A stretch of 64,000 nt of DNA from Gemmatimonadales bacterium (GCA_038215035.1 JBBQRH010000014.1:2312-66311), one strand, 5' to 3'; numbered from the stretch's first letter, positions 1 through 58,961 are shown. Notes: generated by a model not told the origin, from the letters alone. Numbers and translations: made by a program.

Positions 1-3000
1 TTTCGCGTCGCGATCTTCCAGCTCAGCGATACGCACCATCGCTGGGTGTGGACCTTCCCGCACATTCTGCTGGACGGCGGCTCGTTTGCCGCGATCGTGC
101 AGGATCTGTATGCCGCGTATGACGCTCGACGCGCCGGCGGTGTCGCCAGTCTTGCGGCGCGACCGTCGTACGCTGACTTCATCACCTGGCTGACACCCGA
201 ACTCGAGAAGCGACGGGAAGCGGCGAGAACGTTCTTTGCCGACCGTCTTCGCGGTTTCGAGTCGCGAAACCTCATTCTCAACCGGTCGACGGTCGAACCC
301 GCGCACGAACCGGCCGACCGACAGCTGGTCGACGTGTCGACCACGCTGACGCCGGGAACGACAGCGGCGTTGCAAGCGATGGCCTCTGAGGTCGGCGTGA
401 CCATGAACACACTGGTTCAGGCCGCGTGGAGCCTGATCGTCTCCGATTTCTCCGGCGGTGACAGTGATGTCGTCATCGGCGTGGTACGCCGCGGTCGCAG
501 TGCGACGATCCCCGATGCCGACGCGGTGCTCGGCATGTTCATCAACACGCTTCCGCTGCGTGTCCACATCGATCCGGCGCAGCCGCTCAGCGGCCTGCTG
601 CAGGGTATCCGCGCCGACCAGGTGGCGCTGCGACCTTATGAACAAACCGCGTTGCTCGATGTGCAGTCGGTGGCGGAAATCCCGAAGGGCGAGTCGCTCT
701 TCGACTCGATCATCGTCTTTAACGACGTGGAGTTCAGCGCACGCCTTCCGCAGGATGGCGCCTGGAGCGCGCGTCGATACGAGTGGATCGAGCAGACGAA
801 TTATCCACTGACGCTGTACGCATACGATGGACCGGCGCTCGAGTTGAAGCTGAGCACCTACCCTGCCCTCGTCGATCACAGCATCGCCAGCGCGATGATC
901 GCACGGCTCGCGTCCACGCTCGGGGCGTTCGCCACACAGCGTGACGCGACGGTGGGCGGTCTTGACCGCATTCCCGCCGCCGAACAGGCGCAGCTGGCAA
1001 GCTGGAACGCCACCGACGCACCAGTGCCGTCGACGCTCGTGCACCAGTTCTTCGAGGAACAGGTGCGTCAACGCCCGAACGAGATTGCGCTGGTCCACCG
1101 CAACGAAGAGATCACCTACGCGGCACTGAACGCGAGGGCGAACTTCGTTGCCGAACAGTTGCAGCAGCGCGGCGTCGGGCCTGATGTGCTGGTTGGAATC
1201 TACATGGAGCGCGGCATCGACCTGCTGGTCGCGTTGCTCGCGACCCTCAAGGCCGGCGGCGCCTACGTTCCACTCGACCCGGGTTATCCCGAAGCGCGGA
1301 TCACGATGATGCTCGAGGACTGCATTCCGCGTGTGATCCTGACGCAGGAATCGCTGGCGGAGCGCCTTCCCCACCCGAGGCCGGAGACGCTCTCGCTGGA
1401 CGCGCCGGCGCTGCGAGCCGGTGCGCGTGACGCGAACGTCACCTGCTCCGCTACGCCGTCGAGCCTCGCCTACATGATCTTCACCTCCGGCTCCACCGGC
1501 AGGCCGAAGGGCGTCATGATCGAGCACCGGAACGTGGCGAACTTCTTCGTCGGTATGGATGAACGCCTCGGCACGGCGCCCGGGGTCTGGCTCGCCGTGA
1601 CCAGCATCTCGTTCGACATCTCCGTCCTCGAGTTGTTCTGGACCCTTGGCCGCGGCTTCAAGGTCGTGATTCAGGATGAGTCGAGCAAGGCATCGGTGAA
1701 TCGACGCACGGCCGCACGCAACACGCAGCCACTCGAGTTCAGTCTCTTCTACTTTGCGGCCGATGCCGGCAAGACCGGCACCGGCCGCTATCGACTCCTG
1801 CTCGACGGCGCTCGCTACGCCGACACTCACGGATTCAAGGCCATCTGGACGCCGGAGCGGCATTTTCACGCCTTCGGTGGATTGTACCCGAACCCCTCCG
1901 TCACCAGCGCGGCCATCGCCGCAATCACCACCAACGTGCAGATCCGCGCCGGCAGCGTGGTGCTGCCATTGCACGACCCGATCCGCGTGGCCGAGGAGTG
2001 GTCGGTTGTTGACAATCTCTCGAATGGCCGCGTCGGTCTTTCCTTTGCCTCCGGCTGGCACGCCAACGATTTCGCGCTCGCACCACAGAATTATGAGACG
2101 CGGAAAGAGTTCATGTACAAGGGCATGGACACGATCAAGCGGCTCTGGCGTGGCGAGTCCATCACCGTGAAGAACGGGAATGGACAGGAGATTCAGGTGA
2201 GTATCCTGCCCCGCCCAGTGCAGGCGGAGCCGCAATTCTGGGTCTCGGCGGCGGGCAGCACGGCAACGTTTGAATCCGCCGGCGCGATGGGCGCCAACAT
2301 GCTCACCAACATGCTCGGCCAGAGCATCGCAGATCTCAAGGAGCGCATCGCCGCCTATCGTGCGGCCCGCCAGAAGGCTGGGCACGCCGGCAACGGTCAC
2401 GTCTCGCTCATGATGCACACCTTCGTTGGTGACGACATCGACACGGTGAAGAACCTCGTGCGTGGCCCGTTCATGAGCTACCTCCGTACCTCGACCGATC
2501 TGGTGAAGCAGGCGCGGTGGGAATTCCCCGCATTTGCGCGCAAAGGTGTCGAGGCACCGCGCGCGGACCAGTCAGGCATGGATGACCTGTCAGCGGAGGA
2601 CGAGAACGCTCTGATGGCGATGGCGTTCGAACGGTACTTCAAGACGCACGGACTCTTCGGAACGCCGGAGAGCTGCGCCGAGATGATCGACACGCTGAAG
2701 GACATTGGCGTGGACGAGGTGGCCTGTCTGGTGGACTTCGGCGTCGATGAAGACATGGTGCTCTCGAGTCTCGAGGGCCTCAACCGACTGCGTGAACTCA
2801 GCAATGCATCCGCTCCGGCGTCCAGCGTTGACGATTTCCCCATCAGCGCGCAGCTGCAGAAGCACGCGGTGACCCATCTGCAATGCACGCCGTCGCTGGC
2901 TCAGGTACTCCTGCTCGACACCGACAACAGCGCCGCATTCGCTGGCCTACGCTGCCTGATGCTCGGCGGTGAGGCGTTGCCCGATGTCCTCGCGGAACGA

Positions 3001-5265
3001 TTCCTCGCGATGATGCCCGCGGGACGGTTGCTCAACATGTACGGCCCAACGGAAACCACGGTCTGGTCGACGACGGCGCAGATCCGCCGCGGAACACCTG
3101 TCAGCATCGGCAGCCCAATCGCCAACACTCAGGTCGTCCTCCTCGACCGTCTCGACCGGCTCAGTCCTCCAGGAGCTTTGGGCGAACTCTGCATCGGCGG
3201 CGCGGGAGTCGTGCGCGGCTACCATGAGCGGCCCGAACTCACCGCCGAACGCTTCGTCACCCGAACGATTGATCGCAGTGGCAAGCCGACGCGGCTCTAT
3301 CGCACAGGTGATCTGGCGCGCTGGCAATCGAATGGTACGCTCACCTTCGCCGGACGACTCGACCACCAGCTGAAGGTGCGCGGCTATCGCATCGAACTCG
3401 GTGAAATCGAGAATGCCCTGCTGGCGCACCCTGACATCGATCAGGCCGTGGTCGTGCCGCGTGAAGACACGCCCGGTGACAAGCGACTGATCGGTTACGT
3501 CTCGACGCGTCGTGGCAGCGCACCAGGCGCCGGCACCGAGCGGACCGAGTATTGGCGCGATATCTGGGGGCAAGCCTACGCCGAAGGCAACGAGCAAGTC
3601 GAAGACGTCGCCTTCAACGTGTCCGGCTGGTCGTCCAGCGTCACCGGCGGCAAGCTGCCCGAAGCCGAGATGAAAGAGTGGGTCGACCACACCGTCGGGC
3701 GCATTCGTGAGCTCAAGCCAAAGCGGATTCTGTCGATTGGGTGCGGGACCGGACTGCTGCTCTTCCGCCTCGCACCCGATTGCGAGGCGTACACGGGCGT
3801 CGACTACGCCGCACCGGCACTCGCCAACATCCGCCGCGGCCTTCAGGAGAAGTCGCTCACGAATGTCTCGCTCGTCGAGAGTCCGGCGCACGACCTCAGC
3901 GCCATCCCCGACGCTGGTTTCGACGTCGTCGTGATCAACTCCGTCATCCAGTACTTCCCCACCGCCGAATATCTGCGGCAGGTGCTGCGACAGGCACTCG
4001 CGAAACTCGCACCTGGCGGGGCCCTCTTCATCGGAGACGTACGCAGCCTGGCCCTGCTCAACGCATTCCATACCGCCGTCATCCTCGCCCGCACTGAGCC
4101 GACAGCGTCGCTCGATGCCGTGGCGGCGGCGGTCGACAAGCGGCTGGCGCGCGAAAGCGAACTGGTGATCGATCCGCAGTTTTTTGAGGACTTCGCCTCG
4201 GGCGAGCCGATGGTGGATGGCATCAGCGTGGAGCTGAAGCACACCACGGCCACCAACGAAATGTCTTGCTTCCGATACGATGTGGTGTTGCGGAAGTCGT
4301 CGCCGTCGCATCGCGGCGTCCGCCCGACCCCGCTCAGCCTTCGGTCGATCGATGCGTCCGGCCTCACCACCCTGTCGGCAGTGCGCGACGCAGTCCAGGC
4401 GGCGCCGTCGGGCATCCGCTTGAAGGGACTGAAGAACGCACGCGTCGTGCGCGAAGTCCGTGCGACCGAGTTGCTGCAGAAGCCATCGGATGCCGCACGC
4501 CGCACGTTCGCGGATCTTCAGGCCACGCTTGCCTCGGAATCCGGGTTCGATCCAGCCGAGGTGTACGCGCTCGACGCACGCTTCGAGGTGAAGCTGAAGC
4601 CGACGCCGGGTGCGCCAGATTGCTTCGACGCGATTTTCGCACCTCGAGGCGATGGCTGGGACCAGCGACCAGTCGTCCATAGCGCGATTGTCGTGACTCC
4701 TGAGTCGGATCGCGTCGTGATTCGCGAGCCGCGCGCGCAGAGCGCCGCCACGGAACTGGCCGGTCAGCTCACCGTCCGTCTCGCCGCGTCACTGCCGGAC
4801 TACATGGTGCCGGATGAAATCGTGGTACTCGACACGATGCCATTGACCCCGAACGGCAAGATCGATCGTAAAGCTTTGCCGGCACCCGTCCTGTCGCGCG
4901 GTGCAGCAGTGTCACGCGTTGCCTTTGCCCCACCGAGCAACGAACTCGAGCGGCAGATCTCGACCGTCTGGCAGGAGCTGCTTGGCCACGCGCAACTTGG
5001 CACCAGCGACAATTTCTTCGACCTCGGCGCGAACTCGCTCCTGATGATGCAGGCGAACAGCAAACTCCGCGCGGTACTCGGCGTGCCGCTCTCGCTCGTG
5101 CAGATGTTCGAACATCCGACCATCGCCTCGTTGGCCAAGTATCTCGAATCGATGGCGCATGGTGACGACGCCAGCGCTGCGACGGCCGCCGGTCAGGATC
5201 GGGCACAGGCGAGACGCGATGCACTCACACAGCGGCGTGCACCGCGGGCGTCCACGACCCGCTGA
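1..5265 (+). CDS. Nonribosomal peptide synthetase, terminal module C-A(monooxygenase, methyltransferase)-PCP; 5' end cut by the window
   Basis: Frame 1 is open from nt 1; the listed start at 46 is an internal GTG. C-domain motif FPHILLDGGS. A-domain cores LKAGGAYVPLDP, LAYMIFTSGSTGRPKGV, FDISVLE, NMYGPTETT, GELCIGGAGVVRGY, YRTGDLARW, GRLDHQLKVRGYRIELGEIE, LPDYMVP, NGKIDRKAL. PCP motif FFDLGANSL (Ser codon 5035-5037). No TE/R domain before the stop. Confidence 0.9.
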   Translation, partial: FRVAIFQLSDTHHRWVWTFPHILLDGGSFAAIVQDLYAAYDARRAGGVASLAARPSYADFITWLTPELEKRREAARTFFADRLRGFESRNLILNRSTVEPAHEPADRQLVDVSTTLTPGTTAALQAMASEVGVTMNTLVQAAWSLIVSDFSGGDSDVVIGVVRRGRSATIPDADAVLGMFINTLPLRVHIDPAQPLSGLLQGIRADQVALRPYEQTALLDVQSVAEIPKGESLFDSIIVFNDVEFSARLPQDGAWSARRYEWIEQTNYPLTLYAYDGPALELKLSTYPALVDHSIASAMIARLASTLGAFATQRDATVGGLDRIPAAEQAQLASWNATDAPVPSTLVHQFFEEQVRQRPNEIALVHRNEEITYAALNARANFVAEQLQQRGVGPDVLVGIYMERGIDLLVALLATLKAGGAYVPLDPGYPEARITMMLEDCIPRVILTQESLAERLPHPRPETLSLDAPALRAGARDANVTCSATPSSLAYMIFTSGSTGRPKGVMIEHRNVANFFVGMDERLGTAPGVWLAVTSISFDISVLELFWTLGRGFKVVIQDESSKASVNRRTAARNTQPLEFSLFYFAADAGKTGTGRYRLLLDGARYADTHGFKAIWTPERHFHAFGGLYPNPSVTSAAIAAITTNVQIRAGSVVLPLHDPIRVAEEWSVVDNLSNGRVGLSFASGWHANDFALAPQNYETRKEFMYKGMDTIKRLWRGESITVKNGNGQEIQVSILPRPVQAEPQFWVSAAGSTATFESAGAMGANMLTNMLGQSIADLKERIAAYRAARQKAGHAGNGHVSLMMHTFVGDDIDTVKNLVRGPFMSYLRTSTDLVKQARWEFPAFARKGVEAPRADQSGMDDLSAEDENALMAMAFERYFKTHGLFGTPESCAEMIDTLKDIGVDEVACLVDFGVDEDMVLSSLEGLNRLRELSNASAPASSVDDFPISAQLQKHAVTHLQCTPSLAQVLLLDTDNSAAFAGLRCLMLGGEALPDVLAERFLAMMPAGRLLNMYGPTETTVWSTTAQIRRGTPVSIGSPIANTQVVLLDRLDRLSPPGALGELCIGGAGVVRGYHERPELTAERFVTRTIDRSGKPTRLYRTGDLARWQSNGTLTFAGRLDHQLKVRGYRIELGEIENALLAHPDIDQAVVVPREDTPGDKRLIGYVSTRRGSAPGAGTERTEYWRDIWGQAYAEGNEQVEDVAFNVSGWSSSVTGGKLPEAEMKEWVDHTVGRIRELKPKRILSIGCGTGLLLFRLAPDCEAYTGVDYAAPALANIRRGLQEKSLTNVSLVESPAHDLSAIPDAGFDVVVINSVIQYFPTAEYLRQVLRQALAKLAPGGALFIGDVRSLALLNAFHTAVILARTEPTASLDAVAAAVDKRLARESELVIDPQFFEDFASGEPMVDGISVELKHTTATNEMSCFRYDVVLRKSSPSHRGVRPTPLSLRSIDASGLTTLSAVRDAVQAAPSGIRLKGLKNARVVREVRATELLQKPSDAARRTFADLQATLASESGFDPAEVYALDARFEVKLKPTPGAPDCFDAIFAPRGDGWDQRPVVHSAIVVTPESDRVVIREPRAQSAATELAGQLTVRLAASLPDYMVPDEIVVLDTMPLTPNGKIDRKALPAPVLSRGAAVSRVAFAPPSNELERQISTVWQELLGHAQLGTSDNFFDLGANSLLMMQANSKLRAVLGVPLSLVQMFEHPTIASLAKYLESMAHGDDASAATAAGQDRAQARRDALTQRRAPRASTTR
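1732..2790 (+). other. Luciferase-like (FMN-type) monooxygenase domain inserted between A4 and A5 of the adenylation domain (boundaries approximate)
   Basis: Block LEFSLFYFAADAG...FKAIWTPERHFHAFGGLYPNP...LSNGRVGLSFASGWHANDF...FWVSAAGSTATFESAGAMGANMLT lies between FDISVLELF (A4) and THLQCTPS/NMYGPTE (A5). The composition and motifs look like the LLM fold seen in natural-product synthetases. Confidence 0.7.
3538..4755 (+). other. Class I SAM-dependent methyltransferase domain inserted between A8 and A9 of the adenylation domain (boundaries approximate)
   Basis: NVSGWSSSVTGGKLPEAEMKEWVDHTV, SAM motif I ILSIGCGTGLLLFRLAP (3727-3777), VVINSVIQYFP, LAPGGALFIGD. Flanked by GRLDHQLKVRGYRIELGEIE (A8) and LPDYMVP (A9). 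Confidence 0.75.
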
Positions 5266-5274
5266 GGCAGCAAG

Positions 5275-5330
5275 CACGAATGAGAACGGGGGCCTGACAG
5301 GACTGTGTCAGGCCCCCGTGCTCATTCGTG
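5275..5330. terminator. Long inverted repeat between the convergent NRPS and PKS genes (candidate bidirectional terminator)
   Basis: 25-nt arms cacgaatgagaacgggggcctgaca / tgtcaggcccccgtgctcattcgtg with one mismatch and a 6-nt loop. It fills almost the whole 68-nt gap between stops at 5265 (+) and 5334 (-). No clear T tract. Confidence 0.5.
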
Positions 5331-5333
5331 ATC

Positions 5334-8300
5334 TCAGTCGCCCGCGACCGTCTCGACCTCAGTGCGCGCTCCGGCGACGGCCGTAGCCGCCGCATCGGCA
5401 GCATCGAGTGCTGCCCGCACACGTAACGCCAGGACGCGCACGTTCGGCTCGTCGCACATGGTCGTGTGATTGCCAGGACAGACGTGTACCTCGACGCCGT
5501 TCAGCAGATAGCGACCCCACCCATGCTCGCTATCCACCTTGACGCCGGACCAGAGCGACAACGCCGTTTCCTCGCGGGCACGAAACAGGGTGCCGTGCAA
5601 CGGCTGCGCATCGGGGCGATAGTTTCTTTCAGCCACCAGCCACGAACCACCGATGGCGTCGTAGCGGAACGTGTCGGGCATGACACGTCCGAGCTGCCGC
5701 GCCACACGCAGTCGCGTATGGTCGCGCGTCGACCAGTAGAGGCGTTGTGCAGTCTCAAAGAGGTACTTGGGACCAACTGAACGCAGGCGGCGCAAGTGCA
5801 GCGCCGCACGTTCCCGGGAGCTGCGCTGCGGCAAAGCCGGGCTGAACGAATCGATGAAGCCGAGGAACGCCACTGATTCGCCACTCTGCATCAGCTGTCG
5901 CGCCATCTCGAATGCGGCCACACCGCCGCCCGAGTAGCCCCCAAGGAAGTACGGTCCATGCGGCTGTTCGCGGCGCAACTCCGCCACGTAATGCGCCGCC
6001 AGCGCCTCGACGCTGTAGAGCAGCTGCTGCGGATCGTCGGCGCCCGGCGGCTGGAGACCCAGAAACGGTCGGCCGTCTCCAAGCAGCACGGCCAGCTTGC
6101 GCAGGTTGCCGAGCGTACCACCCATCCCCGCGACGCAGACGAACGGCGGACGACTGCCCTTGCTCTGCATGGTCACCAGCGACCGCCAGCGCGAGCTGCG
6201 ATCGGCCGCAGTCGCACCGGTCTCCGGCGGCGCCTCCGCGTCGGTGCCGCCGGCCGACGTGAGCACCTCGAGTGCACCGCCGCCCGCGTCGCCTGGCGTG
6301 TTCTCCACGGTGCTCAGATCAATGCCAAGCTCCTGCGCGATGATCTCGGCGCACTGGGCAATCGTGGGCGCTTCAAAGAGTGTCGACAACGGAAGATCGA
6401 CGCGGTAGTGCTTGCGAATCCGCGTGAACAGCCGTACTGCCACCAGCGACTGGCCACCAATCTCGAAGAAGTCATCGTGCACCCCGATCTCGTTCAAGCC
6501 CAGTAGCTGCTTCCAGAGTTCGCAGAGGTGCCGTTCGAGATCGTTCCGTGGTGCGACGAATGACGTGACGAGCTCGGGACGCGCGAAACCCGTACTCTCG
6601 TCGCGAACGTCGTCACCGGCGGTCGCCGAAGCCTCCTGCTTCTGCTGCAACGACGTGATCCACTTCGGCAGATCGAGGGAACTGGTCAGCACATGCCCAG
6701 ACAACCCCGACGCCATGATCCGGTCGAACGCGTCCAACCCTTCGACCGGTGCGATCGCCAGACGCAGCAGCCCGCGCAGGTTTGCCTGCGCCGCTGTCGA
6801 GGGAGCCGCGTCGTCCTGACGCGCGCGATTCAACCGCGCACCTTCGCCGAGGCGTTTCATCACGAAGCCGCGGATCTGCACCAGTGACCTGCCCTCCGAG
6901 TCGTACAGATTCACGTCGAACTTCGCCGTGTCACCGTGGCTTGCCGCAGGATCAAGCCGCACGTGACTGAACACGTCCTGCGTCAGCCCCGAGAAGAGCC
7001 GCACACGCTCATAGGTGAACGGCACATAGAAGTCCGCCGACTGATCGAAGCCGGGAATCAGCAGCTGAGCGCCTCCGGTTGCCATGTCCATCAGTGCTGG
7101 ATGCAACTTGTAGGTCGCAAGGTCAGCACGGAAATCGTCGGGCAGCCTCAGACGGACGAGCGCCTCGGAGCCGCTGGTCGCGGTCTCCATCACGTTGCCC
7201 CAGCGCGGCCCGAAGTCCATGAAGGGTTGCGCCAGGAAGCCGCCGACGCTTACTGGCGTCCCCAAGCGCGCACGGATCGCGGCCAGCGTCTCCACCGGCT
7301 CAGGCGAATCACGGGTCGTGCCGACCGTCCCAACCACACACGGGTCCTCATCCCCCTCAGGCAGAAACGCGAAGTCTCGCACATTTGCACTCCCGCGGTC
7401 CGCGGCCCCGAGGCGGAGACGCAGCACACGCGGGGCTGATCGCCCAACCATGAATGGTCCGAGGAACGTGACGTTGCGGAGTTCGACGGTCTCATCGGAA
7501 CCCACGTTCTCCAGCGCTGCACGTGCCAGTTCGAGGTAGCCCGTCCCGGGGATCAACGCATCGCCACCACGTACGACGTGCTCCGACAGCAGCCACTGTC
7601 GCGCGCGACTGAAGAGCGTGGAATACACCACCGTGCCATCGGGCTCCGTCGCGATGCGTTCGAGATCCGGATGCGGGCCAGGGTGCCCATTCAATCGCGA
7701 GGCCGGATGCACCGCGCCATCGGCGAGCATGGCCGTCATGCCAACCTCTCGCCACGCATTCCATCCGATCGAAATCGCCCGCACATCGGTCGTCAGCCGC
7801 TTCCGTTCGATGAACGCGTCAAGGAACGCATTCGCCGACGTGTAGTCCACCTGTCCCTCGAGCCCGAGCACCGAACTCACCGAGGAGAACGCGATAAAGA
7901 ACTCGAGGGGTTCAGCGCGCAGCACTGCATCCAGCACCATCGCGCCCAGAGCCTTGACGGTGATCACGGGCGTTGGTGCGGACGGCGACTTGAGCGAGAT
8001 GAGACCATCATCGATCAGGCCGGCAGAGTGAATGACGCCATGAATTGCGCCGAACTGCGCTCTGGCCATCGCGACGACGCCGCTCATCTGTTCGAGATCG
8101 GTCACATCCGCCGTCAGCGGCAGCACCTCGCCACCCGCGGCCTCGATCGCGAGCAGCTTGGTCACCTGGCGCCCGATGCGATCGCTGCCACCCTGCGATG
8201 CGATCGCTGCCCATTCGCGACGATCAGGGACGCTCGTCCTGCCGATCAACACCAACCGCGCCTTGGCGGTGCGTGCCAGATGCTCCGCCATTTCCAGGCC

Positions 8301-11300
8301 GATGCCGTTCAGGCCACCAGTAATAAGGATGGTCGCACGCGCTCGCACGATGAGGTCACCACCCACCGCTGGCTCCAGTGGGACTGACGTGAGTACGCGC
8401 ACCCACCGCGCGTTGTGGCGCAGTGCGATGGCGGAATCGGTCACTGGACGTCGGAGTTCCTGCAGCAGACGAGCTGCCTGGTTTTCGACCGAGGCGGAAC
8501 CAAGCCAGAGATCGATACAGCGACTGTGGATCTGCGGCACTTCACGCGCCGCCACCTGCGTCGGCCCCACCAGCAACGCCTTCAGCGGATCAGGCGGCAC
8601 GTCGTCATCGGCACAGCAATAGAGACCACGCGCCACCGTCGACAACACCAATGGCCGTTCCTGCTCCGCCGCGGCCTGCACGATGCAGAGCTGGCTGACG
8701 TAGAAGCTCCCCACCGCACGATTGAGCGCTACCGCCATGTCCGTCTGCTTCATCCAGTCGAAGAACCCCTTCGCCGGCGCATCGAGCCCCCAGAGATGCA
8801 CCACCTGCTCGGGCCACCGATCCTCGATCACGAGCGCCTCGAAGAGCGCCGCAAAGTCCTCGCTGGAGTCGGCACGGACGATGAACTCGGTGTCACTCAC
8901 ACGCCGGAAGCGGGCGCCGATCCGGACCGCCACGGTGCGGCCGGCGGGCCGCAGCGCAGCCAACGCATCCGCCAGACCGCCGCCATCCGCGAAGACCAGC
9001 CAGAGACCGGCAGACGCATCGGTTTCACCAGCGGACATCGCCGACCGGCGCCATAGTGGCATGGAGAACCAGTCGCGGACGTCATCATGCCGCGACATTC
9101 CGCCCACTGGCCTCGCCGCGGCGGTCTCCGTGGTCTGCGCAGGCAACCAGAACCGCTGATGCTCGAACGGATAGGTCGGCAATGGAATGCGCCGCCGCCG
9201 CGCACCGTTGTGCAATGCCGACAGCTGCACGATCCCACCGCTCTCCCAGATCTTGCCGATCGTACCAAGCAGGAAGTCGACGTCTGAGGCACTCTCACGC
9301 GGATGCCGCAATGTGGGGACGGCCACCGGAATCGGTGTCTGCGATCGCGCAAGGCTGCAGAGCGTGCGCCCGGGACCAATCTCGACCAGCACGCTACGAC
9401 CGCTCGCCAGCACGGCCTGCAGCCCATCATTGAATCGAACCGTCTGACGCAGATGCCGCACCCAATACTGCGGATCCATTGCCTCATCCGGCGTGATCCA
9501 CGCGCCGGTCAGGTTCGAAATGAACGGAATCTTCGGCGCAGCGAATCGCACCCGTGCACAGACACGGCCAAACTCCGCCAGGATCGGCTCCAGCATGACC
9601 GAGTGCGCCGCCACCGCGATGTGAATGCGCGTGCTCTCGATCTCGCGCTGCTGTAACGTCGCCTGCAGCGCGTCGATTGCGGCCACGGGCCCGGACGCCA
9701 CACACAGCCGTGGGCCGTTCACCGCGGCAATCGAGAGCGTCTGCCCAAGCAAGGGCAGCAATTCCGACTCCGACAATTCCACACTCAGCATGCCGCCGGC
9801 CGGCAGCGTCTCGAAGAGCCGCGCACGTTCGATCACCAGCGCCAGTCCATCACGCAGAGAAAAGACGCCGGCCAGACAGGCGGCAACGTACTCGCCCATG
9901 CTGTGGCCGATCATCCCGGCCGGCTGCAGACCCCACGCCGTGAGCAGCCTGACGGTGGCATACTCTGTGGCAAAAAGTGCTGGCAGCGCAAAACGTGGTG
10001 CCTCGAGTTCCGTCGTCGCGCTCACCACATCGGCCGGCGCCGGAAAGACCAGACGCCGCAACGTCCCGGCGAGCGAATCCGGCATCTCGGCCAGGCATTC
10101 GTCAAACGCCTGACGATACACCGCTTCGGTCTCGTACAGCTCGCGCCCCATCGACGCGTACTGCGCCCCGCCACCGGGGAACATGTAAACAATGCGTGCG
10201 TCATCACCCGCCGTCGCCGGCACCGTCCCCTTCTGTGGCTCGCGCAGCGCCGCAGCGACCTGTGCCGCGGTGCGACCCACCACCGTGCGCCGATACTGAA
10301 ACGCCACCCGTCCTTCGTGCAGCGTCCAGGCCGCGTCAGCCAGCGAAATGGACGGGTCCTGCTCGAGACAGTCGGCCAGTCGCGTCGCCGCGCGCTCGAG
10401 CGCCGTTCGCGTCTTGGCACTTATTGTTACCAATTGTGCCGACCGCGGCGGCGCGGCGGACGGCGCGACCGGCGGTGCCTCCTCGAGGATCAGATGCGTG
10501 TTGGTGCCACCGGCGCCGAGCGCCGTGACACCGGCGCGACGCGGCCACGCGCCGCGCGGCCACGGCGCCAGCGTCGTGTTGACGAAAAATGGGCTCGAGG
10601 CAAAATCGATCTGCGGATTCGGGGCCGTGAAGTTGACGCAGGGTGGAAACTGCTGGTGCCGGATTGCCAGCACCGTCTTGATGAACCCCGCCATGCCGGC
10701 CGCTTCACCGAGATGGCCGATGTTGGCCTTCACCGAGCCAAGTGCAATGAATCCCTTCTTCTCCGTCAGCGGCGCGTACGCCTGACTCAACGCCTCGACC
10801 TCGATCGGGTCGCCCACCGCCGTGCCGGTGCCATGTGCCTCGATCATGCCGATCGAATCCGCCGGCACGCCCGAGATTGCCAGTGCCTCCGACACCGCGC
10901 GCGCCTGCCCGTCAACGCTCGGCGCCAGATAGCCCACCTTCTGCGAACCATCATTGTTGACCGCCGTACCGCGAATCACGGCCAGAACCGTGTCGCCATC
11001 CTCGAGCGCATCCTCCAGCCGCTTCAGCACGACGCACCCGGTGCCACTGCCGAAGAGCGTTCCCTTCGAGCCGGCGTCGAACGGACGGCAGTGACCATCG
11101 GACGACAGGATCTCGCCCTGCTTGTAGACATACCCGCGGTCCTGCGGCAGCGACATCGTCGATGCGCCCGCCAGTGCCAGATCCGTCTCACGATTCAGCA
11201 GGCTCTGACACGCAATGTGGATGGCGGTCAGCGACGACGAACACGCCGTCTGCACGTTCATCGCCGGCCCCTTCAGATTCATCTGGTACGCGGCACGGGT

Positions 11301-11843
11301 CGCGAGGAAGTTCATGTCGTTGCCGTTGTGGCGTGCCAGCCACTCGCCAACGGTGCGCATGATCTCCTTGTTCGGCACGACGTGATACAGCATGTAGTGA
11401 TTCATGCCGGTGGCCGCAAACACACCGGTGGCCAGCGGGGCGGACTTGCCGGAGTACCCGGCGCGCTCCATCGCCTCCCACGCGACTTCGAGGAAGAACC
11501 GATGCTGCGGGTCCATCACGGACGCGTCGCGCGGACTCATGCCGAAGAACCCGGCGTCGAAGTTCTCGATGCCGTCGAGCTGCGGCCAGGCGCGGACATA
11601 GGCGGGGTCGGCCAGCAGCGACGGATCCTCGCCGGCGGCAAGCAGTTCTTCGTCGGAGAAGAACCGGACGGACTCCACGCCATCGCGGACATTCGCCCAG
11701 TACTCCTCCAACGAGCCAGCACCGGGGAAGCGCCCGGCCATGGCGATGACCGCGATCTCAGTTCCTGTCAGGTCGCTTTCGTTGTGCATCATCGGATCGA
11801 TCGTGCTCGTAGTGTGAAACGTCGGCTGGAAGCAACCGGACAC
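5334..11843 (-). CDS. Type I polyketide synthase, KS-AT-KR-DH-carrier-TE
   Basis: KS: DPQHRFFLEVAWEA, TACSSSL (Cys codon 11241-11243), EAHGTGT, NIGHLG. AT: GHSMGE (Ser codon 9900-9902) and VAAHS. Linker YPFEHQRFW. KR: TGGLNGIG, YTSAN. DH after KR: HVVRGGDALIPG, HPALMD. Carrier: FFEIGGQSL. TE: GGYSGG, PGNH. The ORF start at 11843 is GTG; an ATG-ATG pair at 11792 is an alternative start. Confidence 0.9.
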   Translation of the reverse strand: MSGCFQPTFHTTSTIDPMMHNESDLTGTEIAVIAMAGRFPGAGSLEEYWANVRDGVESVRFFSDEELLAAGEDPSLLADPAYVRAWPQLDGIENFDAGFFGMSPRDASVMDPQHRFFLEVAWEAMERAGYSGKSAPLATGVFAATGMNHYMLYHVVPNKEIMRTVGEWLARHNGNDMNFLATRAAYQMNLKGPAMNVQTACSSSLTAIHIACQSLLNRETDLALAGASTMSLPQDRGYVYKQGEILSSDGHCRPFDAGSKGTLFGSGTGCVVLKRLEDALEDGDTVLAVIRGTAVNNDGSQKVGYLAPSVDGQARAVSEALAISGVPADSIGMIEAHGTGTAVGDPIEVEALSQAYAPLTEKKGFIALGSVKANIGHLGEAAGMAGFIKTVLAIRHQQFPPCVNFTAPNPQIDFASSPFFVNTTLAPWPRGAWPRRAGVTALGAGGTNTHLILEEAPPVAPSAAPPRSAQLVTISAKTRTALERAATRLADCLEQDPSISLADAAWTLHEGRVAFQYRRTVVGRTAAQVAAALREPQKGTVPATAGDDARIVYMFPGGGAQYASMGRELYETEAVYRQAFDECLAEMPDSLAGTLRRLVFPAPADVVSATTELEAPRFALPALFATEYATVRLLTAWGLQPAGMIGHSMGEYVAACLAGVFSLRDGLALVIERARLFETLPAGGMLSVELSESELLPLLGQTLSIAAVNGPRLCVASGPVAAIDALQATLQQREIESTRIHIAVAAHSVMLEPILAEFGRVCARVRFAAPKIPFISNLTGAWITPDEAMDPQYWVRHLRQTVRFNDGLQAVLASGRSVLVEIGPGRTLCSLARSQTPIPVAVPTLRHPRESASDVDFLLGTIGKIWESGGIVQLSALHNGARRRRIPLPTYPFEHQRFWLPAQTTETAAARPVGGMSRHDDVRDWFSMPLWRRSAMSAGETDASAGLWLVFADGGGLADALAALRPAGRTVAVRIGARFRRVSDTEFIVRADSSEDFAALFEALVIEDRWPEQVVHLWGLDAPAKGFFDWMKQTDMAVALNRAVGSFYVSQLCIVQAAAEQERPLVLSTVARGLYCCADDDVPPDPLKALLVGPTQVAAREVPQIHSRCIDLWLGSASVENQAARLLQELRRPVTDSAIALRHNARWVRVLTSVPLEPAVGGDLIVRARATILITGGLNGIGLEMAEHLARTAKARLVLIGRTSVPDRREWAAIASQGGSDRIGRQVTKLLAIEAAGGEVLPLTADVTDLEQMSGVVAMARAQFGAIHGVIHSAGLIDDGLISLKSPSAPTPVITVKALGAMVLDAVLRAEPLEFFIAFSSVSSVLGLEGQVDYTSANAFLDAFIERKRLTTDVRAISIGWNAWREVGMTAMLADGAVHPASRLNGHPGPHPDLERIATEPDGTVVYSTLFSRARQWLLSEHVVRGGDALIPGTGYLELARAALENVGSDETVELRNVTFLGPFMVGRSAPRVLRLRLGAADRGSANVRDFAFLPEGDEDPCVVGTVGTTRDSPEPVETLAAIRARLGTPVSVGGFLAQPFMDFGPRWGNVMETATSGSEALVRLRLPDDFRADLATYKLHPALMDMATGGAQLLIPGFDQSADFYVPFTYERVRLFSGLTQDVFSHVRLDPAASHGDTAKFDVNLYDSEGRSLVQIRGFVMKRLGEGARLNRARQDDAAPSTAAQANLRGLLRLAIAPVEGLDAFDRIMASGLSGHVLTSSLDLPKWITSLQQKQEASATAGDDVRDESTGFARPELVTSFVAPRNDLERHLCELWKQLLGLNEIGVHDDFFEIGGQSLVAVRLFTRIRKHYRVDLPLSTLFEAPTIAQCAEIIAQELGIDLSTVENTPGDAGGGALEVLTSAGGTDAEAPPETGATAADRSSRWRSLVTMQSKGSRPPFVCVAGMGGTLGNLRKLAVLLGDGRPFLGLQPPGADDPQQLLYSVEALAAHYVAELRREQPHGPYFLGGYSGGGVAAFEMARQLMQSGESVAFLGFIDSFSPALPQRSSRERAALHLRRLRSVGPKYLFETAQRLYWSTRDHTRLRVARQLGRVMPDTFRYDAIGGSWLVAERNYRPDAQPLHGTLFRAREETALSLWSGVKVDSEHGWGRYLLNGVEVHVCPGNHTTMCDEPNVRVLALRVRAALDAADAAATAVAGARTEVETVAGD

Positions 11844-12043
11844 AGGGGCGGTGACACAAAGCTCCAGTGGCTGGCGCGGCGCCGGGTACGCTGAACGAGA
11901 GCGCAGTCACCGCACTGCCGGCCGGTTGCTGCGTCGAGTCATCCGCTGGCTCCGAGTGTCTGACGAGCGAGTCAGAAAATTATCTCAACGCGCGCGTTGC
12001 GCAGGTGGCGCGCCCCCGTCCCTGGAGCCGACTGGACTGCTCG

Positions 12044-12072
12044 TTGTGCCGCTCGACCCAACCGGGTAACTT
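12044..12072 (+). promoter_or_regulatory. Candidate sigma70-like promoter for tRNA-Ser
   Basis: TTGTGC (12044-12049), a 17-nt spacer, then TAACTT (12067-12072), 11 nt upstream of the mature tRNA 5' end. Pattern match only. Confidence 0.3.
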
Positions 12073-12083
12073 CTTCGGCTGTT

Positions 12084-12172
12084 GGAGGGATGGCCGAGAG
12101 GCTGAAGGCACCGGTTTGCTAAACCGGCGTACTGGGAAACTGGTACCGAGGGTTCGAATCCCTCTCTCTCCG
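12084..12172 (+). tRNA. tRNA-Ser (anticodon GCU)
   Basis: Cloverleaf folded by hand. Acceptor ggaggga/tctctcc. Anticodon stem ccggt/accgg with loop ttGCTaa. Long variable arm gtactgg-gaaa-ctggtac. T arm gaggg-ttcgaat-ccctc. Discriminator g. No encoded CCA. Confidence 0.9.
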
Positions 12173-12178
12173 TGTGAC

Positions 12179-12211
12179 GGGCCCACCACGTACCGGTGGG
12201 CCCGTTTTCTT
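12179..12211 (+). terminator. Rho-independent terminator after tRNA-Ser
   Basis: Stem gggcccacc / ggtgggccc followed by gttttctt. Confidence 0.6.
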
Positions 12212-12235
12212 ATCCGCACCGAGGCCCTGCCCCGC

Positions 12236-13690
12236 ATGACCGCGCCCGCCCCACGCCTTCGATTTGCCCCCTCCCCGACCGGATACCTCCATGTCGGGGG
12301 CGCCCGAACGGCGCTCTTCAACTGGCTCTGGGCCCGGAAGACCGGGGGTAAGTTCCTCCTCCGGATCGAGGATACTGACAAGGCCCGCAGCACCGACGAG
12401 AGTACCGCGGCGATCTTTCACGGGCTCGAGTGGCTGGGGCTGGACTGGGATGAGGACGTGGTCTTCCAGGGCGCCAACGTCGCCCGCCACAAGGCCGACG
12501 CCCAGCGATTGGTCGAGAACGGATCCGCCTACCTCGATTTCACCACCGTCGCCGAACTCGACCGACTTCGCGCCGACGCGGATGCCCGAAAGGAGCCATT
12601 TCGATTCGACCGGCGCCTCGCCAGCTGGTCACCGGACCAAATCCGGCAGAAGCTCGCCGACGGCGAACCGTTCACCATCCGGTTCCGCGTCCCGGATGGC
12701 ACGACCGCCTGGGACGACATCGTGCATGGGCGCATCGCCTTCGAGAACAAGGAGATCGAGGACTTCATCATCCTCCGCTCCGACGGCACACCGATCTACA
12801 ACCTCGCCGTCGTCTCCGATGACATCGCGATGGCCATCACGATCGTGATGCGCGGCGACGATCATATTTCGAATACGCCAAAGCAGATCCTCCTCTATCA
12901 GGCGCTTGGCGCTCCACTGCCGCAGTTCGCACACGTGCCCATGATCCACGGCACGGATGGCAAGAAGCTCAGCAAGCGTCGCGATGCGGCGGCCGTCGGC
13001 GACTGGGAGTACAAGGGAATTCTGCCGACGGCGATGGCAAACTTCCTCGCGCTCCTTGGCTGGAGCCCAGGTGACGATCTCGAGGTCATGATGCCGGACG
13101 AGATGCTGAGGCATTTCACCCTCGATCGCCTGCACCGGAAAGCGGCAATCTTCGACACGCAGAAACTCGAGTGGATGAACGGGCAGCACCTGTCGCGACG
13201 CCCACTGGACGAAGTGCTGCCGCGCGTGATCGACGCGCTCGTCCGTCACGACGTCGCGACCCCGGAGCGGCTCGCCGCCGATCCCGCCTGGACGGCGCAT
13301 CTCGTCGATCAACTCCGCGTTCGGTCCCGCACGATCGAAGAAATCGTGAAGCAGGCGCGACCATATCTCATAGACGAGCTCGTCTACGACGACGAGGCGG
13401 TCGCAAAAGCGTTGCTGAAGGATCGCGTCGTGAGTGCCGACATTCTCTCCGCGACACGGGACGCACTCGAGAACGCGCCGGCATGGACTGCGGAGGCGCT
13501 CGAGCCGGCCCTGCGAACACTCGCGGAATCACGTGGTCTGGCGGCGGGGAAGATCTTCACCCCACTCCGGGTCGCGGTCACGGGACTCTCGGTCAGCCCG
13601 GGCATCTTCGATGTCCTCACACTGATCGGCAGGGACCGAAGCCTCGAGCGTCTCGCGCGCACGCTGGACATGCTGGCGACAACGCCGTAG
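12236..13690 (+). CDS. gltX: Glutamyl-tRNA synthetase
   Basis: MTAPAPRLRFAPSPTGYLHVGGARTALFNWLWARK...LLRIEDTD (HIGH region) and KLSKR (KMSKS region). Start moved to ATG 12236 because the listed ORF (11867) runs through tRNA-Ser. Confidence 0.92.
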   Translation: MTAPAPRLRFAPSPTGYLHVGGARTALFNWLWARKTGGKFLLRIEDTDKARSTDESTAAIFHGLEWLGLDWDEDVVFQGANVARHKADAQRLVENGSAYLDFTTVAELDRLRADADARKEPFRFDRRLASWSPDQIRQKLADGEPFTIRFRVPDGTTAWDDIVHGRIAFENKEIEDFIILRSDGTPIYNLAVVSDDIAMAITIVMRGDDHISNTPKQILLYQALGAPLPQFAHVPMIHGTDGKKLSKRRDAAAVGDWEYKGILPTAMANFLALLGWSPGDDLEVMMPDEMLRHFTLDRLHRKAAIFDTQKLEWMNGQHLSRRPLDEVLPRVIDALVRHDVATPERLAADPAWTAHLVDQLRVRSRTIEEIVKQARPYLIDELVYDDEAVAKALLKDRVVSADILSATRDALENAPAWTAEALEPALRTLAESRGLAAGKIFTPLRVAVTGLSVSPGIFDVLTLIGRDRSLERLARTLDMLATTP

Positions 13691-19743: not shown

Positions 19744-20205
19744 CTAGGATCGCAGAATGGTCGTCAGGTCGGCCTGAACGACCCGCTGCGCGCCGACGCG
19801 CGCCACGCCGTGACTGCGGCAGATGCCACGACGAAACTGCCGCAGCTCGACACTCAGATCGAGCATGTCGCCGGGCATCGCGTCGGAGCGGAACCGCACC
19901 CGATCGATCCCGATGAAATAGCCGATGGCGCCCGATTTGCCGTCGAGCAGCGCCACCAGGATCGCCGCCGACAGCTGCGCCAGCGCTTCCACGATCAACA
20001 GATGCGGCATGGCATGCACGCGACCAATGGCGCCCACACCGATCAGCGAGGACTCACTGCCAGTGACCGCCTTGGTGCCCGTGACGCGCCGACCGGGCTC
20101 CTGCACCGTGATGGTATCCAGCAGCAGGAACGGAAATCGATGCGGCAGGAGCGCGAATGGATCGATCACGGTCGGCGTCGCCGCCGTCGCCTCGTGTGTC
20201 ATCAC
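19744..20205 (-). CDS. FabZ-like hotdog-fold (3R)-hydroxyacyl-ACP dehydratase homologue
   Basis: LLPHRFPFLLLD, MPHLLIVEALAQ, YFIGIDRVRFRSDAMPGD. The usual GHFP His context reads IGVGAIGRVH. The listed start is GTG 20205, followed immediately by an ATG. Confidence 0.7.
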   Translation of the reverse strand: MMTHEATAATPTVIDPFALLPHRFPFLLLDTITVQEPGRRVTGTKAVTGSESSLIGVGAIGRVHAMPHLLIVEALAQLSAAILVALLDGKSGAIGYFIGIDRVRFRSDAMPGDMLDLSVELRQFRRGICRSHGVARVGAQRVVQADLTTILRS

Positions 20206-21461
20206 GTCTTGCGCGGCTTCTTCTGTGCGGCGGGGAACAGCACGTTGTTCAGGATCAGGCGGTAGCCCGGCGATGACGGATACAGCGACAGGTCGGTTGG
20301 TGCCGCACCCACCTCATGCTGCGGATCTTCGGGATCGTGGCCACCAAGGAAGGTCCACGCCCCCTTGCCGTAACTGCCGTGGATGTACTTCGCGAATGGC
20401 ATGCCATCTTCATAGGCCAGCACCCGCGTACCCGGCTTGAGCGTCGACTTGGTGAAGCTGGTGGTCACACCGTAGTAGTCCTGCAGCACACTGCGATGAT
20501 TCTGTGTCAGCATGGTCGGCACCGGATCCAGTTTCGCCGAGAACGCGAACAGGCTGAACGTCCCCAGCGCACGACGCCGACCCGGCACATTCACCTGATG
20601 CCCGTCGATGTCGCTCATGCTGTTGATCAGCGGACTTGGTTCGAGGTGCGCATTCTGCACCGCAAACGCGCGCGACCAGTCCATCTTCTGGTCAGCGTCG
20701 GCATCCATCGGCGTACCATCCGCAAAGCCACTGGAGATATCGACGTTTGCGCCGGCGATCGCCAGCTCCAGTGTCTCCGTCGCACCACACATTGCGAACA
20801 GGAAGCCACCATTTTCGACGTAGGACCGCATCTTCTCCGCGACGGCCTTCTTCAGCGCCGGCACGTTGTTGAAGCCAAGCTGTCTGGCCTGCGCGACTGT
20901 GCGATTCACCTGATTGATGAACCACGGGCTGCCGCGATACGAGATGTAGAACTTGTTGTACTGACCGGTGAAGTCTTCGTGGTGCAGGTGCAGCCACTCA
21001 TACTTCGACAGGTCGCCGGCAATCACCTCCGGGTCCCACACCTTCGTGTACGGAATCCCCGCGTAGTCGAGCGCAATCGTCACCGCATCATCCCACGGAT
21101 TGGCGCTGGGTGGCGAATAGATGGCAACCTTCGGTGCCCGCTCCAGCGGCACCGCATCGAAGTTGCCGCCGGCCATCTCAGTCCGGATCGCGGCCAGCGC
21201 GCCGGCGTCCAGCGGTGTCAGCGATACCCCGTCGATCCCGGCGCGGCGGCGGGTTGCCGGCGAGTCGAGCAACAGAAACGCGCCCCCACGGTAGTTCAGC
21301 AGCCACTCGGCCTTTTCCGTGCGCTGGAGCGCGCTGTACGTCAGGCCGTAGGCCTTCAGATGATTGCGCTGCGCGTCGTCCATCGGGACCAGCAGGTGCT
21401 GCGCCGCGAGTGGCGACGCGGCGCTTACAGCGAGGAGCACCACTTGTAGCCATCGGTGCAT
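20202..21461 (-). CDS. Secreted hypothetical protein (signal peptide; possible amidotransferase-like fold)
   Basis: Signal peptide MHRWLQVVLLAVSAASPLAAQ. Cys-containing FLFAMCGATE. Overlaps both neighbours (TGATG upstream, 4 nt downstream). Family not recognised with confidence. Confidence 0.6.
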   Translation of the reverse strand: MHRWLQVVLLAVSAASPLAAQHLLVPMDDAQRNHLKAYGLTYSALQRTEKAEWLLNYRGGAFLLLDSPATRRRAGIDGVSLTPLDAGALAAIRTEMAGGNFDAVPLERAPKVAIYSPPSANPWDDAVTIALDYAGIPYTKVWDPEVIAGDLSKYEWLHLHHEDFTGQYNKFYISYRGSPWFINQVNRTVAQARQLGFNNVPALKKAVAEKMRSYVENGGFLFAMCGATETLELAIAGANVDISSGFADGTPMDADADQKMDWSRAFAVQNAHLEPSPLINSMSDIDGHQVNVPGRRRALGTFSLFAFSAKLDPVPTMLTQNHRSVLQDYYGVTTSFTKSTLKPGTRVLAYEDGMPFAKYIHGSYGKGAWTFLGGHDPEDPQHEVGAAPTDLSLYPSSPGYRLILNNVLFPAAQKKPRKT

Positions 21462-58915: not shown

Positions 58916-58961
58916 GGCGGGACTGAGGCAACTGGTCGCAAATGGTCCGGAGGGACTGGTA

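Follow-up and report, generated by a model that had tools for sequence, protein, structure and literature searches.

A predicted glycine-type adenylation domain interrupted by a monooxygenase and a methyltransferase, and its polyketide synthase partner, in a Gemmatimonadales bacterium

The synthetase gene and its twice-split adenylation domain

We analyzed a 64,000-nucleotide stretch of DNA from a Gemmatimonadales bacterium (GCA_038215035.1 JBBQRH010000014.1:2312-66311), hereafter called the window, whose left end carries most of a gene for a nonribosomal peptide synthetase (NRPS). Frame 1 of the plus strand is open in the window translation from nt 1 to a stop codon at 5263-5265. This 3′ part of the gene (positions 1-5265, 5265 nt, plus strand) encodes the last 1754 residues of an 1877-aa protein with a condensation (C) domain, an adenylation (A) domain that contains a luciferase-like monooxygenase (LLM) and a methyltransferase (MT), and a peptidyl carrier protein (PCP). 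A public full-length protein, P0001 (1877 aa), is 100% identical to the window NRPS. It places 123 N-terminal residues left of the window and the C domain at the protein start, with YPLTPVQQGMLFH at residue 10, and it contains no additional module ahead of the C domain. A first-pass annotation of the same DNA had described an open reading frame (ORF) of 1739 aa. Such an ORF does exist at 46-5265, but it merely begins at the first in-frame GTG, and the real protein has 1877 aa.

Domains were called by searching the NRPS translation with Pfam and NCBIfam hidden Markov models (HMMs), and residue positions were counted in the frame-1 window translation; all NRPS features lie on the plus strand. 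The C domain, cut by the window edge, occupies nt 1-996 (PF00668, aa 1-332), with its active site PHILLDG at nt 58-78. The A domain follows in three pieces. Piece 1 (1051-1716; PF00501, aa 351-565) holds motifs A1 to A4, including A3 LAYMIFTSGSTGRPKGV at aa 489-505 and A4 FDISVLELF at aa 538-546. Piece 2 (2821-3519; TIGR01733, aa 948-1151) runs from the pre-A5 region to A8, with THLQCTPS at aa 958, the A5 motif NMYGPTETT at aa 1012 and A8 GRLDHQLKVRGYRIELGEIE at aa 1118 (A8 spans 1118-1137). Piece 3 (4792-4878; motifs, and AMP-binding_C matched in two stretches) holds A9 LPDYMVP at aa 1598 and A10 NGKIDRKAL, with the Lys517 equivalent, at aa 1618. Between A4 and A5 lies an insert resembling FMN-dependent luciferase-like monooxygenases of the MupA/Atu3671 or "MOx" type (1732-2805; TIGR04020), marked by LEFSLFYFAAD at aa 578, WTPERHFHAFGG at aa 616 and SFASGWH at aa 681. 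Between A8 and A9 lies a second insert of ~405 aa, resembling class-I S-adenosylmethionine (SAM) methyltransferases of type I, that is, like backbone N-methyltransferases (3538-4755; Pfam and PDB 5WMM), with ILSIGCGTGLLL and the GxGxG motif ILSIGCGTG both at aa 1243 and LAPGGALFIGD at aa 1336. The PCP (4954-5145; PF00550, aa 1652-1715) carries its phosphopantetheine Ser, at nt 5035-5037, in FFDLGANSL at aa 1672, and the protein ends in a basic tail, GQDRAQARRDALTQRR... (5185-5262), which is a putative docking element to the polyketide synthase described below.

All ten core motifs A1 to A10 were found in order, and PF00501, PF13193 and TIGR01733 were matched; AMP-binding was matched in two pieces, with the best stretch at aa 351-565. 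HMM searches, matches to solved structures and motif positions agree with the first-pass description of a single A domain split twice, by an LLM at A4/A5 and a SAM methyltransferase at A8/A9, and every motif quoted in that description is present in frame 1 of the plus strand.

The specificity code, read with the anchors FDxS, pre-A5 xxxPS, GGE, NxYGPTE, TETTxx and the A10 Lys, is D-I-L-Q-M-G-M-V-W-K. Piece 1 supplies positions 235, 236 and 239 (D, I and L), and piece 2 supplies positions 278, 299, 301, 322, 330 and 331 (Q, M, G, M, V and W). Motif anchoring thus reproduced the code DILQMGMVWK that had been extracted by hand, and the published consensus makes it glycine-type. A 2025 survey of 93 Gly-activating domains reported the signature DILQ[L/M]G[L/M][I/V]WK, variable only at positions 299, 322 and 330, and all four of its monooxygenase-containing Gly domains carry the code DILQLGMIWK (PMC12283262). 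The window code falls inside the Gly consensus and is two residues off the monooxygenase-type code; 18 homologues all keep its residues D, I, Q, G, M322, W and K. The prediction from the code fits a glycine-type A domain. The spliced A domain gave LgrA as its top PDB match (E 1e-192), and module 2 of LgrA activates Gly. This match was dropped as evidence for glycine: the score sums two A domains, LgrA-A2 by itself gives no outstanding match, and its code differs.

The first insert covers aa 578-935 and matches Bac_luciferase at aa 579-906 (Pfam) and the natural-product LLM domain TIGR04020 at aa 580-931, the latter with 504 bits against a cut-off of 244. Among solved structures, it is ~60% identical over 359 aa (E 1.1e-115) to the monooxygenase domain of PuwE (PDB 6KET), likewise an assembly-line LLM. 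We take PuwE to belong to the puwainaphycin pathway and its LLM domain to hydroxylate alpha to the carrier-bound thioester. Rather than an A-domain insert, this domain is presumably part of a PKS-type module whose substrate is a beta-amino fatty acyl chain. The A4/A5 position equals the monooxygenase site of MtaG and MelG in myxothiazol and melithiazol biosynthesis, as had been proposed at first; both have a Gly-type A domain with a luciferase-like monooxygenase between a4 and a5, and alpha-hydroxylation of PCP-bound N-acylglycine is expected of them (PMC10204066). SolF of the solanimycin pathway in Dickeya solani is a second Gly module with an in-module flavin monooxygenase (PMC10204066). It differs in that its monooxygenase lies between a8 and a9, in that it has no MT, and in that it belongs to a large assembly line with an NRPS module next.

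Five class-I methyltransferase families (Methyltransf_12, _25, _11, _31 and _23) were matched at ~aa 1237-1351 of the second insert. Its nearest solved relative is TioS A4-M4 (PDB 5WMM; E 8.7e-56 over 309 aa), the next-best match having E >= 3e-09, in a comparison without type II O-methyltransferase references. Type-I M domains average 390 +/- 21 aa (PMC8341866), and the ~405 aa of the insert lie within that size. Like TioS(A4-M4-A4) and the other members of family 1 (A8MbA9) of interrupted A domains, which have a type-I SAM methyltransferase of typical size between a8 and a9, the window protein has a class-I SAM methyltransferase with a GxGxG motif between a8 and a9 that is nearest to an N-methyltransferase; family 1 domains differ in having one interruption only (Lundy 2020). 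Family 7 (A2MbA3-6MsA7; Lundy 2020) has two M domains, at a2-a3 and a6-a7, and so does not match an LLM at a4-a5 with an M domain at a8-a9. Because the best solved relative is the TioS backbone N-methyltransferase, the MT more likely acts on the backbone nitrogen, and N-methylation, the role supposed for it at first, was rated the likelier one.

Against the orthologue at locus L001 (86% identity), dN/dS was lowest in the LLM (0.036), followed by the MT (0.106) and the C domain (0.157). The cofactor and catalytic motifs of both inserts are invariant in the 18 homologues (43-86% identity). By these criteria, both inserts appear to be functional and under purifying selection; decayed remnants were rejected on the grounds of the invariant motifs and low dN/dS. 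Placement of the inserts in the LLM and SAM methyltransferase families had been set beforehand as a test that could refute the double interruption, and the HMM searches placed both inserts there.

The adjoining polyketide synthase and conservation of the pair

Immediately beyond the NRPS gene, on the opposite strand, lies a gene for a type I polyketide synthase (PKS) of 2169 codons (5334-11843, minus strand; Pfam, NCBIfam and motifs). Its likely start is the Met codon at nt 11792 or 11789, according to alignment with L001, and it converges on the NRPS gene, ending 68 bp past the NRPS stop codon. The PKS has the domain order KS-AT-(KR prefix)-KR-DH-ACP-TE, that is, ketosynthase (KS; 10629-11759), acyltransferase (AT; 9363-10190), ketoreductase (KR; 7746-8336), dehydratase (DH; 6831-7673), acyl carrier protein (ACP; 6345-6527) and thioesterase (TE; 5451-6122), all on the minus strand and called with Pfam. 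The KS Cys/His/His, the AT GHSxG motif, the KR Tyr and xDD, the DH His, the ACP Ser and the TE Ser/His are conserved in 37 orthologues, and the xDD signature makes the KR B-type. The KR is placed ahead of the DH, and a GGxSL motif resembling that of NRPSs marks the carrier domain. At the AT specificity motif, the 37 orthologues read [IV]AAH and the window PKS reads VAAH (9363-10190, minus strand). Known AT signatures are HAFH for malonyl and YASH for methylmalonyl units.

The first-pass annotation had noted that no TE, reductase (R) or C domain follows the PCP. This is true of the polypeptide, but the release-less terminal module that was read from it is not supported, given the TE-bearing PKS 68 bp downstream. 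Between the convergent stop codons, folding revealed a 24-bp hairpin (5275-5330) with a minimum free energy of -48.9 kcal/mol (z = -8.95), which none of 200 shuffled sequences equaled. A scan for the consensus terminator pattern found nothing because the hairpin has no T-run. The hairpin is a probable shared bidirectional terminator of the NRPS and PKS genes.

We determined how common the NRPS architecture is from the best 120 clusters at 90% identity, classified with domain HMMs. Exactly C-A(LLM)(MT)-PCP occurs in 61 proteins, and the same arrangement headed by a formyltransferase (F) domain, F-A(LLM)(MT)-PCP, in 17, so that at least 78 of the 120 clusters share this twofold interruption; it is also seen in a few others that are partial or multimodular. 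The doubly interrupted proteins that could be named come from metagenome-assembled genomes (MAGs) of Myxococcales, Polyangia, Pyrinomonadaceae, Gemmatimonadaceae and Hyphomonadaceae. In a neighbor-joining tree built on the LLM and the A5-A8 core, most MT-bearing proteins fall into a single clade of 77 sequences, within which the F-headed MT-bearing group is nested; two MT-less members of this clade are best read as secondary losses. From this tree, the twofold interruption appears to mark an old, diversified lineage, not a one-off.

Wherever the context DNA is long enough, an orthologous PKS of ~2100 aa adjoins the NRPS: in the window and at L001, L002, L003, L005, L084, L085 and L087. Locus L001 (86% identity) has the convergent layout and synteny of the window; L084 is 61%, L085 51% and L002 47% identical, the last with a divergent layout. 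Locus L003 is of the F-headed, MT-bearing type, L087 (65-71% identity) lacks the MT, and L005 has the NRPS and orthologous PKS pair. The pair is thus kept across phyla at 43-86% identity, and the PKS partners are ~45% identical over their full length across lineages. Only the NRPS and PKS genes are common to 18 diverse loci.

A scan of species-representative genomes, in which no relative exceeded 57% identity, added 33 loci with an MT-less F-A(LLM)-PCP protein and a PKS-TE. These F-type loci belong mainly to Rhodobacteraceae (Shimia, Roseovarius, Leisingera, Paracoccus, Antarctobacter and Thalassovita) and occur also in Aureimonas, Rhodopirellula, Acanthopleuribacter and others. We define the cassette as [C or F]-A(LLM)[+/-MT]-PCP together with KS-AT-KR-DH-ACP-TE. 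It was found in all four combinations, with a C or an F head and with or without the MT, and its hosts include Gemmatimonadota, Acidobacteriota, Myxococcota and Rhodobacteraceae, among others. The window locus has the adjacent orthologous PKS-TE, the basic NRPS tail and the short acidic PKS N-terminus of the cassette.

The cassette types differ in carrier motif and surroundings. The PCP Ser motif LGANSL (window 5014-5040, plus strand) occurs throughout the main MT-bearing clade; the MT-less F-type cassettes and the group of protein P0073 have GGHSL in its place. At L037 (1-22300, Thalassovita litoralis) and most Rhodobacteraceae loci between L029 and L080, the MT-less F cassette lies within a polysaccharide-type locus. 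There, a GT2 gene stands between the PKS and NRPS genes, a phosphopantetheinyl transferase (PPTase) gene is directly downstream, and GT4, GT2, a Wzx-like flippase, Wzz, a Wzc-like ATPase and a sugar epimerase/dehydrogenase are encoded nearby. Polysaccharide-type genes were seen at 27 of the 33 F-type loci; among loci with C+MT or F+MT cassettes, only L085 and L003 have them; the window lacks them.

All cassette NRPSs (C+MT, C, F+MT and F) share the basic C-terminal tail DRAQARRDA..RR (consensus DRAxARRxA..RR), which is missing in P0073, P0072 and P0066. Of these three, only the P0073 locus (L086) was examined, and its context is another one. At L086, from a Pyrinomonadaceae MAG, a C-A(LLM)(MT)-PCP protein of a different clade and with another tail type lies in a larger NRPS-rich cluster, which encodes a PKS-aminotransferase protein and three TE-bearing NRPSs and has no KS-AT-KR-DH-ACP-TE partner. 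The PKS N-termini of the cassette are short and acidic and face the basic NRPS tail, and the NRPS has no N-terminal docking extension. This complementarity of charge suggests electrostatic docking of the NRPS tail to the PKS head.

The C domain is DCL-like: its best PDB relatives are McyB, PvdL, SrfA-C and TycB, and the starter C domain RzmA was matched only at E 3e-11. The catalytic residues of the PHILLDG motif, H144 and D148, are invariant in the 18 homologues. Outside its own family, it is nearest (35-36% identity) to C domains that likewise stand at the N-terminus of their NRPS proteins.

Order of synthesis and the proposed product

Several independent observations from the comparison of loci favor an order in which the NRPS acts before the PKS. 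F-headed cassettes have no C domain able to take a PKS product. The NRPS and PKS genes are co-directional and abutting or overlapping in L013, L030, L050 and L061. In L014, L025 and L038, an A(LLM)-PCP gene is directly upstream of a PKS gene, and C-A-PCP modules then follow; the PKS genes of these three loci and of L017, L018, L032 and L076 can be aligned to the window PKS as one continuous block reaching from KS to ACP, at 38-50% identity. The basic NRPS tail, with the acidic PKS N-termini opposite it, points to the same order. Because of the F-headed relatives and the co-linear longer assembly lines, A(LLM)-PCP would hand its product on to the KS. The reverse order, in which a loading or iterative PKS builds an enoyl or polyenoyl chain that the C domain moves onto N-methylglycine, with the TE acting in trans on the PCP-bound product or remnant, would account for a C domain that is DCL-like and comes without a dedicated donor gene. 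The placement of KR before DH, which recalls iterative synthases, and the position of the PKS gene upstream of the NRPS gene in Rhodobacteraceae also agree with it. However, such an order is impossible in the orthologous F-headed cassettes, which lack a C domain, and in the co-linear longer lines this PKS module follows A(LLM)-PCP. The TE is attached to the ACP, not the PCP, and the NRPS has a conserved C-terminal tail and no N-terminal docking extension. We therefore consider PKS-first synthesis very unlikely.

Sequence analysis shows the NRPS to be a single C-A-PCP module whose A domain carries an LLM in the large-subdomain loop A4-A5 and a type-I N-methyltransferase in the small-subdomain loop A8-A9, and it shows a neighboring PKS whose catalytic motifs are all intact. 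With a probability of roughly 55%, we read the pair as a two-gene NRPS-PKS cassette for N-methylation, N-acylation, alpha-hydroxylation, polyketide extension and TE release; the competing explanations each fit the comparative data less well. In the proposed mechanism, glycine would be adenylated and loaded on the PCP, and the MT, using SAM, would convert Gly-S-PCP to sarcosyl-S-PCP as TioS does. The N-terminal C domain would then N-acylate sarcosyl-S-PCP with a donor supplied in trans, a step that would fall to the formyltransferase domain in the F-headed relatives. The LLM, with reduced FMN from an unlinked reductase, would hydroxylate C-alpha of the thioester, the chemistry reported for MtaG and MelG (PMC10204066). 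The N-acyl-N-methyl-alpha-hydroxyglycyl chain would pass to the PKS KS, docking being provided by the basic NRPS tail and acidic PKS head. One C2 extension, reduction by the B-type KR and dehydration would follow, and the TE would release an N-capped, gamma-hydroxylated "vinylogous N-methylglycine". The predicted product is 4-(N-acyl-N-methylamino)-4-hydroxybut-2-enoate, or a lactone or fragmentation product thereof.

A different role for the MT bears on the stability of the hydroxylated intermediate. The MT could methylate the new alpha-hydroxyl group, giving alpha-methoxyglycine (an N,O-acetal) and stabilizing the hemiaminal before extension. This O-methylation, which the first-pass annotation had put forward as an alternative, would settle the problem of hemiaminal stability, and N-acyl O-methyl aminals occur in pederin-type polyketides. 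Yet the insert is nearest to the TioS backbone N-methyltransferase (E 8.7e-56) and has the size of a type-I N-methyltransferase domain, and MT-less cassettes with the same PKS (L087 and the F-type) indicate that methyl stabilization is not required. The chance that the MT is an O-methyltransferase appears slim.

The most direct competitor to extension by the PKS is the release chemistry of MtaG and MelG, which had been the initial hypothesis for this DNA: the acyl-N-methylglycine would be hydroxylated, an N-methyl amide freed and the PCP-bound glyoxylate hydrolyzed, the PKS being unrelated or serving to remove the remnant. The shared LLM family, the A4-A5 site and the Gly-type code all speak for such release, and Dreckmann et al. 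read the modules with LLM and N-methyltransferase (nMT) of corallorazine-type (crz-like) clusters in this way (PMC11342130). However, MtaG and MelG have the terminal arrangement C-A-MOX-A-T-TE, whereas the window NRPS has no TE in cis, bears an extra N-methyltransferase insert and is a single module with a KS-AT-KR-DH-ACP-TE partner that co-evolves with it across phyla. The F-headed relatives would by this route yield merely formamide or N-methylformamide, and A(LLM)-PCP modules are often internal, with KS or C domains after them. Amide release is therefore improbable, and the earlier picture of a terminal module that frees an N-methyl amide for want of a release domain is not supported, since the gene is half of a conserved NRPS+PKS(TE) pair. 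The window module probably elongates its product rather than releasing an amide.

Collapse of the hemiaminal could also be combined with extension. In such a scheme the N-cap would be traceless: the glyoxylyl-S-PCP left by collapse would be extended by the PKS to a 4-oxobut-2-enoyl (fumaraldehydic) electrophile, with the amide as a by-product. This accounts for the PKS partner and the LLM jointly, the formyl group is the cheapest N-cap possible, and the collapse chemistry is documented for MtaG and MelG. On the other side, an MT of ~405 aa under purifying selection, and C and F alternatives kept in large clades, would be odd for a leaving group. Solanimycin B retains its alpha-hydroxyglycine, and in the SolF system, with its in-module flavin monooxygenase, the alpha-hydroxyglycine is kept and elongated (PMC10204066). 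We regard a traceless cap as unlikely and prefer the cassette in which the N-acyl-N-methyl-alpha-hydroxyglycyl unit is retained and extended.

Several points weigh against this preferred cassette mechanism. N-acyl-N-methyl hemiaminals may collapse, by analogy with MtaG and MelG. The C domain, judged by its relatives, resembles the DCL type and not a lipo-initiation starter, and no ligase, ACP or second NRPS that could provide its acyl donor is encoded near the loci, including L001; a search around the C+MT cassettes for conserved accessory genes (acyl ligase, ACP and flavin reductase) likewise found none. We infer the docking role of the tail from charge and co-occurrence. On the PKS side, the AT motif [IV]AAH fits neither HAFH nor YASH, so that the predicted extender unit is tentative. 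Because the KR is B-type, an E-enoate is expected, and simple butenolide formation is disfavored. The order of KR before DH is also known from iterative synthases, so that more than one extension would be possible.

An arrangement comparable to the proposed one is that of the syrbactin synthetases SylD and GlbC, in which an amino-acid module followed by a KS-AT-KR-DH-type module and a TE gives an alpha,beta-unsaturated gamma-amino acyl (vinylogous) unit. By comparison, the glycine of the window system is predicted to be N-capped, N-methylated and C-alpha-hydroxylated, the system is a minimal one of two proteins, and the KR lies ahead of the DH. We tentatively put forward a more far-reaching proposal, which is possible but doubtful. 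The doubly interrupted A domain would perform adenylation, N-methylation and C-alpha-hydroxylation on one glycine, and the cassette would make an undescribed class of N-capped, gamma-hydroxylated vinylogous glycines that act as masked 4-oxo-enoate electrophiles or signals; the roseobacter product may couple to the synthesis of a surface polysaccharide or glycoconjugate.

Published counterparts and other features of the window

Each of the two insertions is known singly, the monooxygenase at a4-a5 from MtaG and MelG and the type-I M domain at a8-a9 from TioS and hundreds more. The catalogue of interrupted A domains, from which environmental sequences were excluded, holds M-type interruptions only, and its di-interrupted domains are M+M only (family 7, n = 3) (Lundy 2020). 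For 38 crz-like pathways from Serratia and Pseudomonas, bioinformatic work had described Gly A domains that carry both an nMT and a MOx (Dreckmann 2024, PMC11342130). The crz-like clusters resemble the window in having a MOx within an nMT-bearing Gly A2 domain (PMC11342130). They differ in their bimodular Crz1, a dehydrating C domain, an A2 domain whose parts lie on two ORFs, terminal thioreductase (reductive) release and the lack of a PKS partner; the window NRPS has one module, keeps its A domain whole on a single ORF and is paired with a PKS-TE, and is thus not of the crz family. Among our relatives, L010 and L012 from Streptomyces show the crz-like split, C-A-T-C-A(LLM)(MT) followed by a second ORF that encodes the A9-A10 piece and the PCP, and extend the published Serratia and Pseudomonas observation.

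The MT-less F-type cassette has been listed merely as a "novel" NRPS-T1PKS cluster, with Roseibaca genes of 4527 and 6333 nt (PMC10584327). In the literature we found no characterized product for roseobacter and F-type cassettes, and neither a product nor biochemical work for modules with both MOx and MT; the mentions are bioinformatic only. The initial claim of novelty thus stands in part: no characterized module with both inserts was found, but the architecture is abundant in genomes and metagenomes, and the nMT+MOx pair had already been reported bioinformatically. In other words, the architecture is common but not characterized. C-A(LLM)(MT)-PCP is a real and widespread architecture, neither unique nor a release-less terminal module.

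Interrupted A domains are models for building multifunctional NRPS catalysts. A domain di-interrupted by an LLM and an N-methyltransferase would add a category to their catalogue and would demonstrate that one A domain can accommodate two foreign catalytic domains simultaneously, one in its large and one in its small subdomain. What had seemed an orphan terminal module becomes a minimal two-protein NRPS-PKS system that is experimentally tractable, and the cassette has a wide distribution that takes in poorly studied phyla as well as marine Rhodobacteraceae. It could reveal what decides between cleavage of an assembly-line alpha-hydroxyglycine, as in MtaG, and its retention and elongation, as in SolF.

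Past the PKS lie gltX, lexA and further housekeeping genes, and the cluster therefore ends at ~11.9 kb. The YchF protein encoded in the window is 77-79% identical to its matches; 10 of the 11 that carry a name are assigned to Gemmatimonadaceae, Gemmatimonadales or Gemmatimonadota, which places the window in a Gemmatimonadota genome. The gltX ORF (11867-13690, plus strand) encodes 607 aa, with the catalytic domain starting at aa 130, and the L001 orthologue was called at 484 aa. The true start of gltX is probably near nt 12230, so that gltX and the PKS gene would be separated by some 440 bp of divergent promoter region.

Four further regions of the window contain unusual ORFs. At 17111-19699 (minus strand), a RadC-like JAB domain forms the N-terminal part of an 862-aa ORF that also encodes a DinG/Rad3-type helicase (DEAD and Helicase_C_2). 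Three ORFs in series at 20202-26598 (minus strand), of 419, 594 and 1147 aa, have coding-like GC content at third codon positions (GC3) and gave no Pfam match at E <= 1e-4 or 1e-5. An 807-aa fusion at 40580-43003 (minus strand) joins a serine beta-lactamase/PBP-like domain to a VanX-type D-Ala-D-Ala dipeptidase (Peptidase_M15). Finally, a protein of 1165 aa encoded at 58836-62333 (plus strand) carries PD40 (WD40-like beta-propeller) repeats and a C-terminal Omp85 domain.

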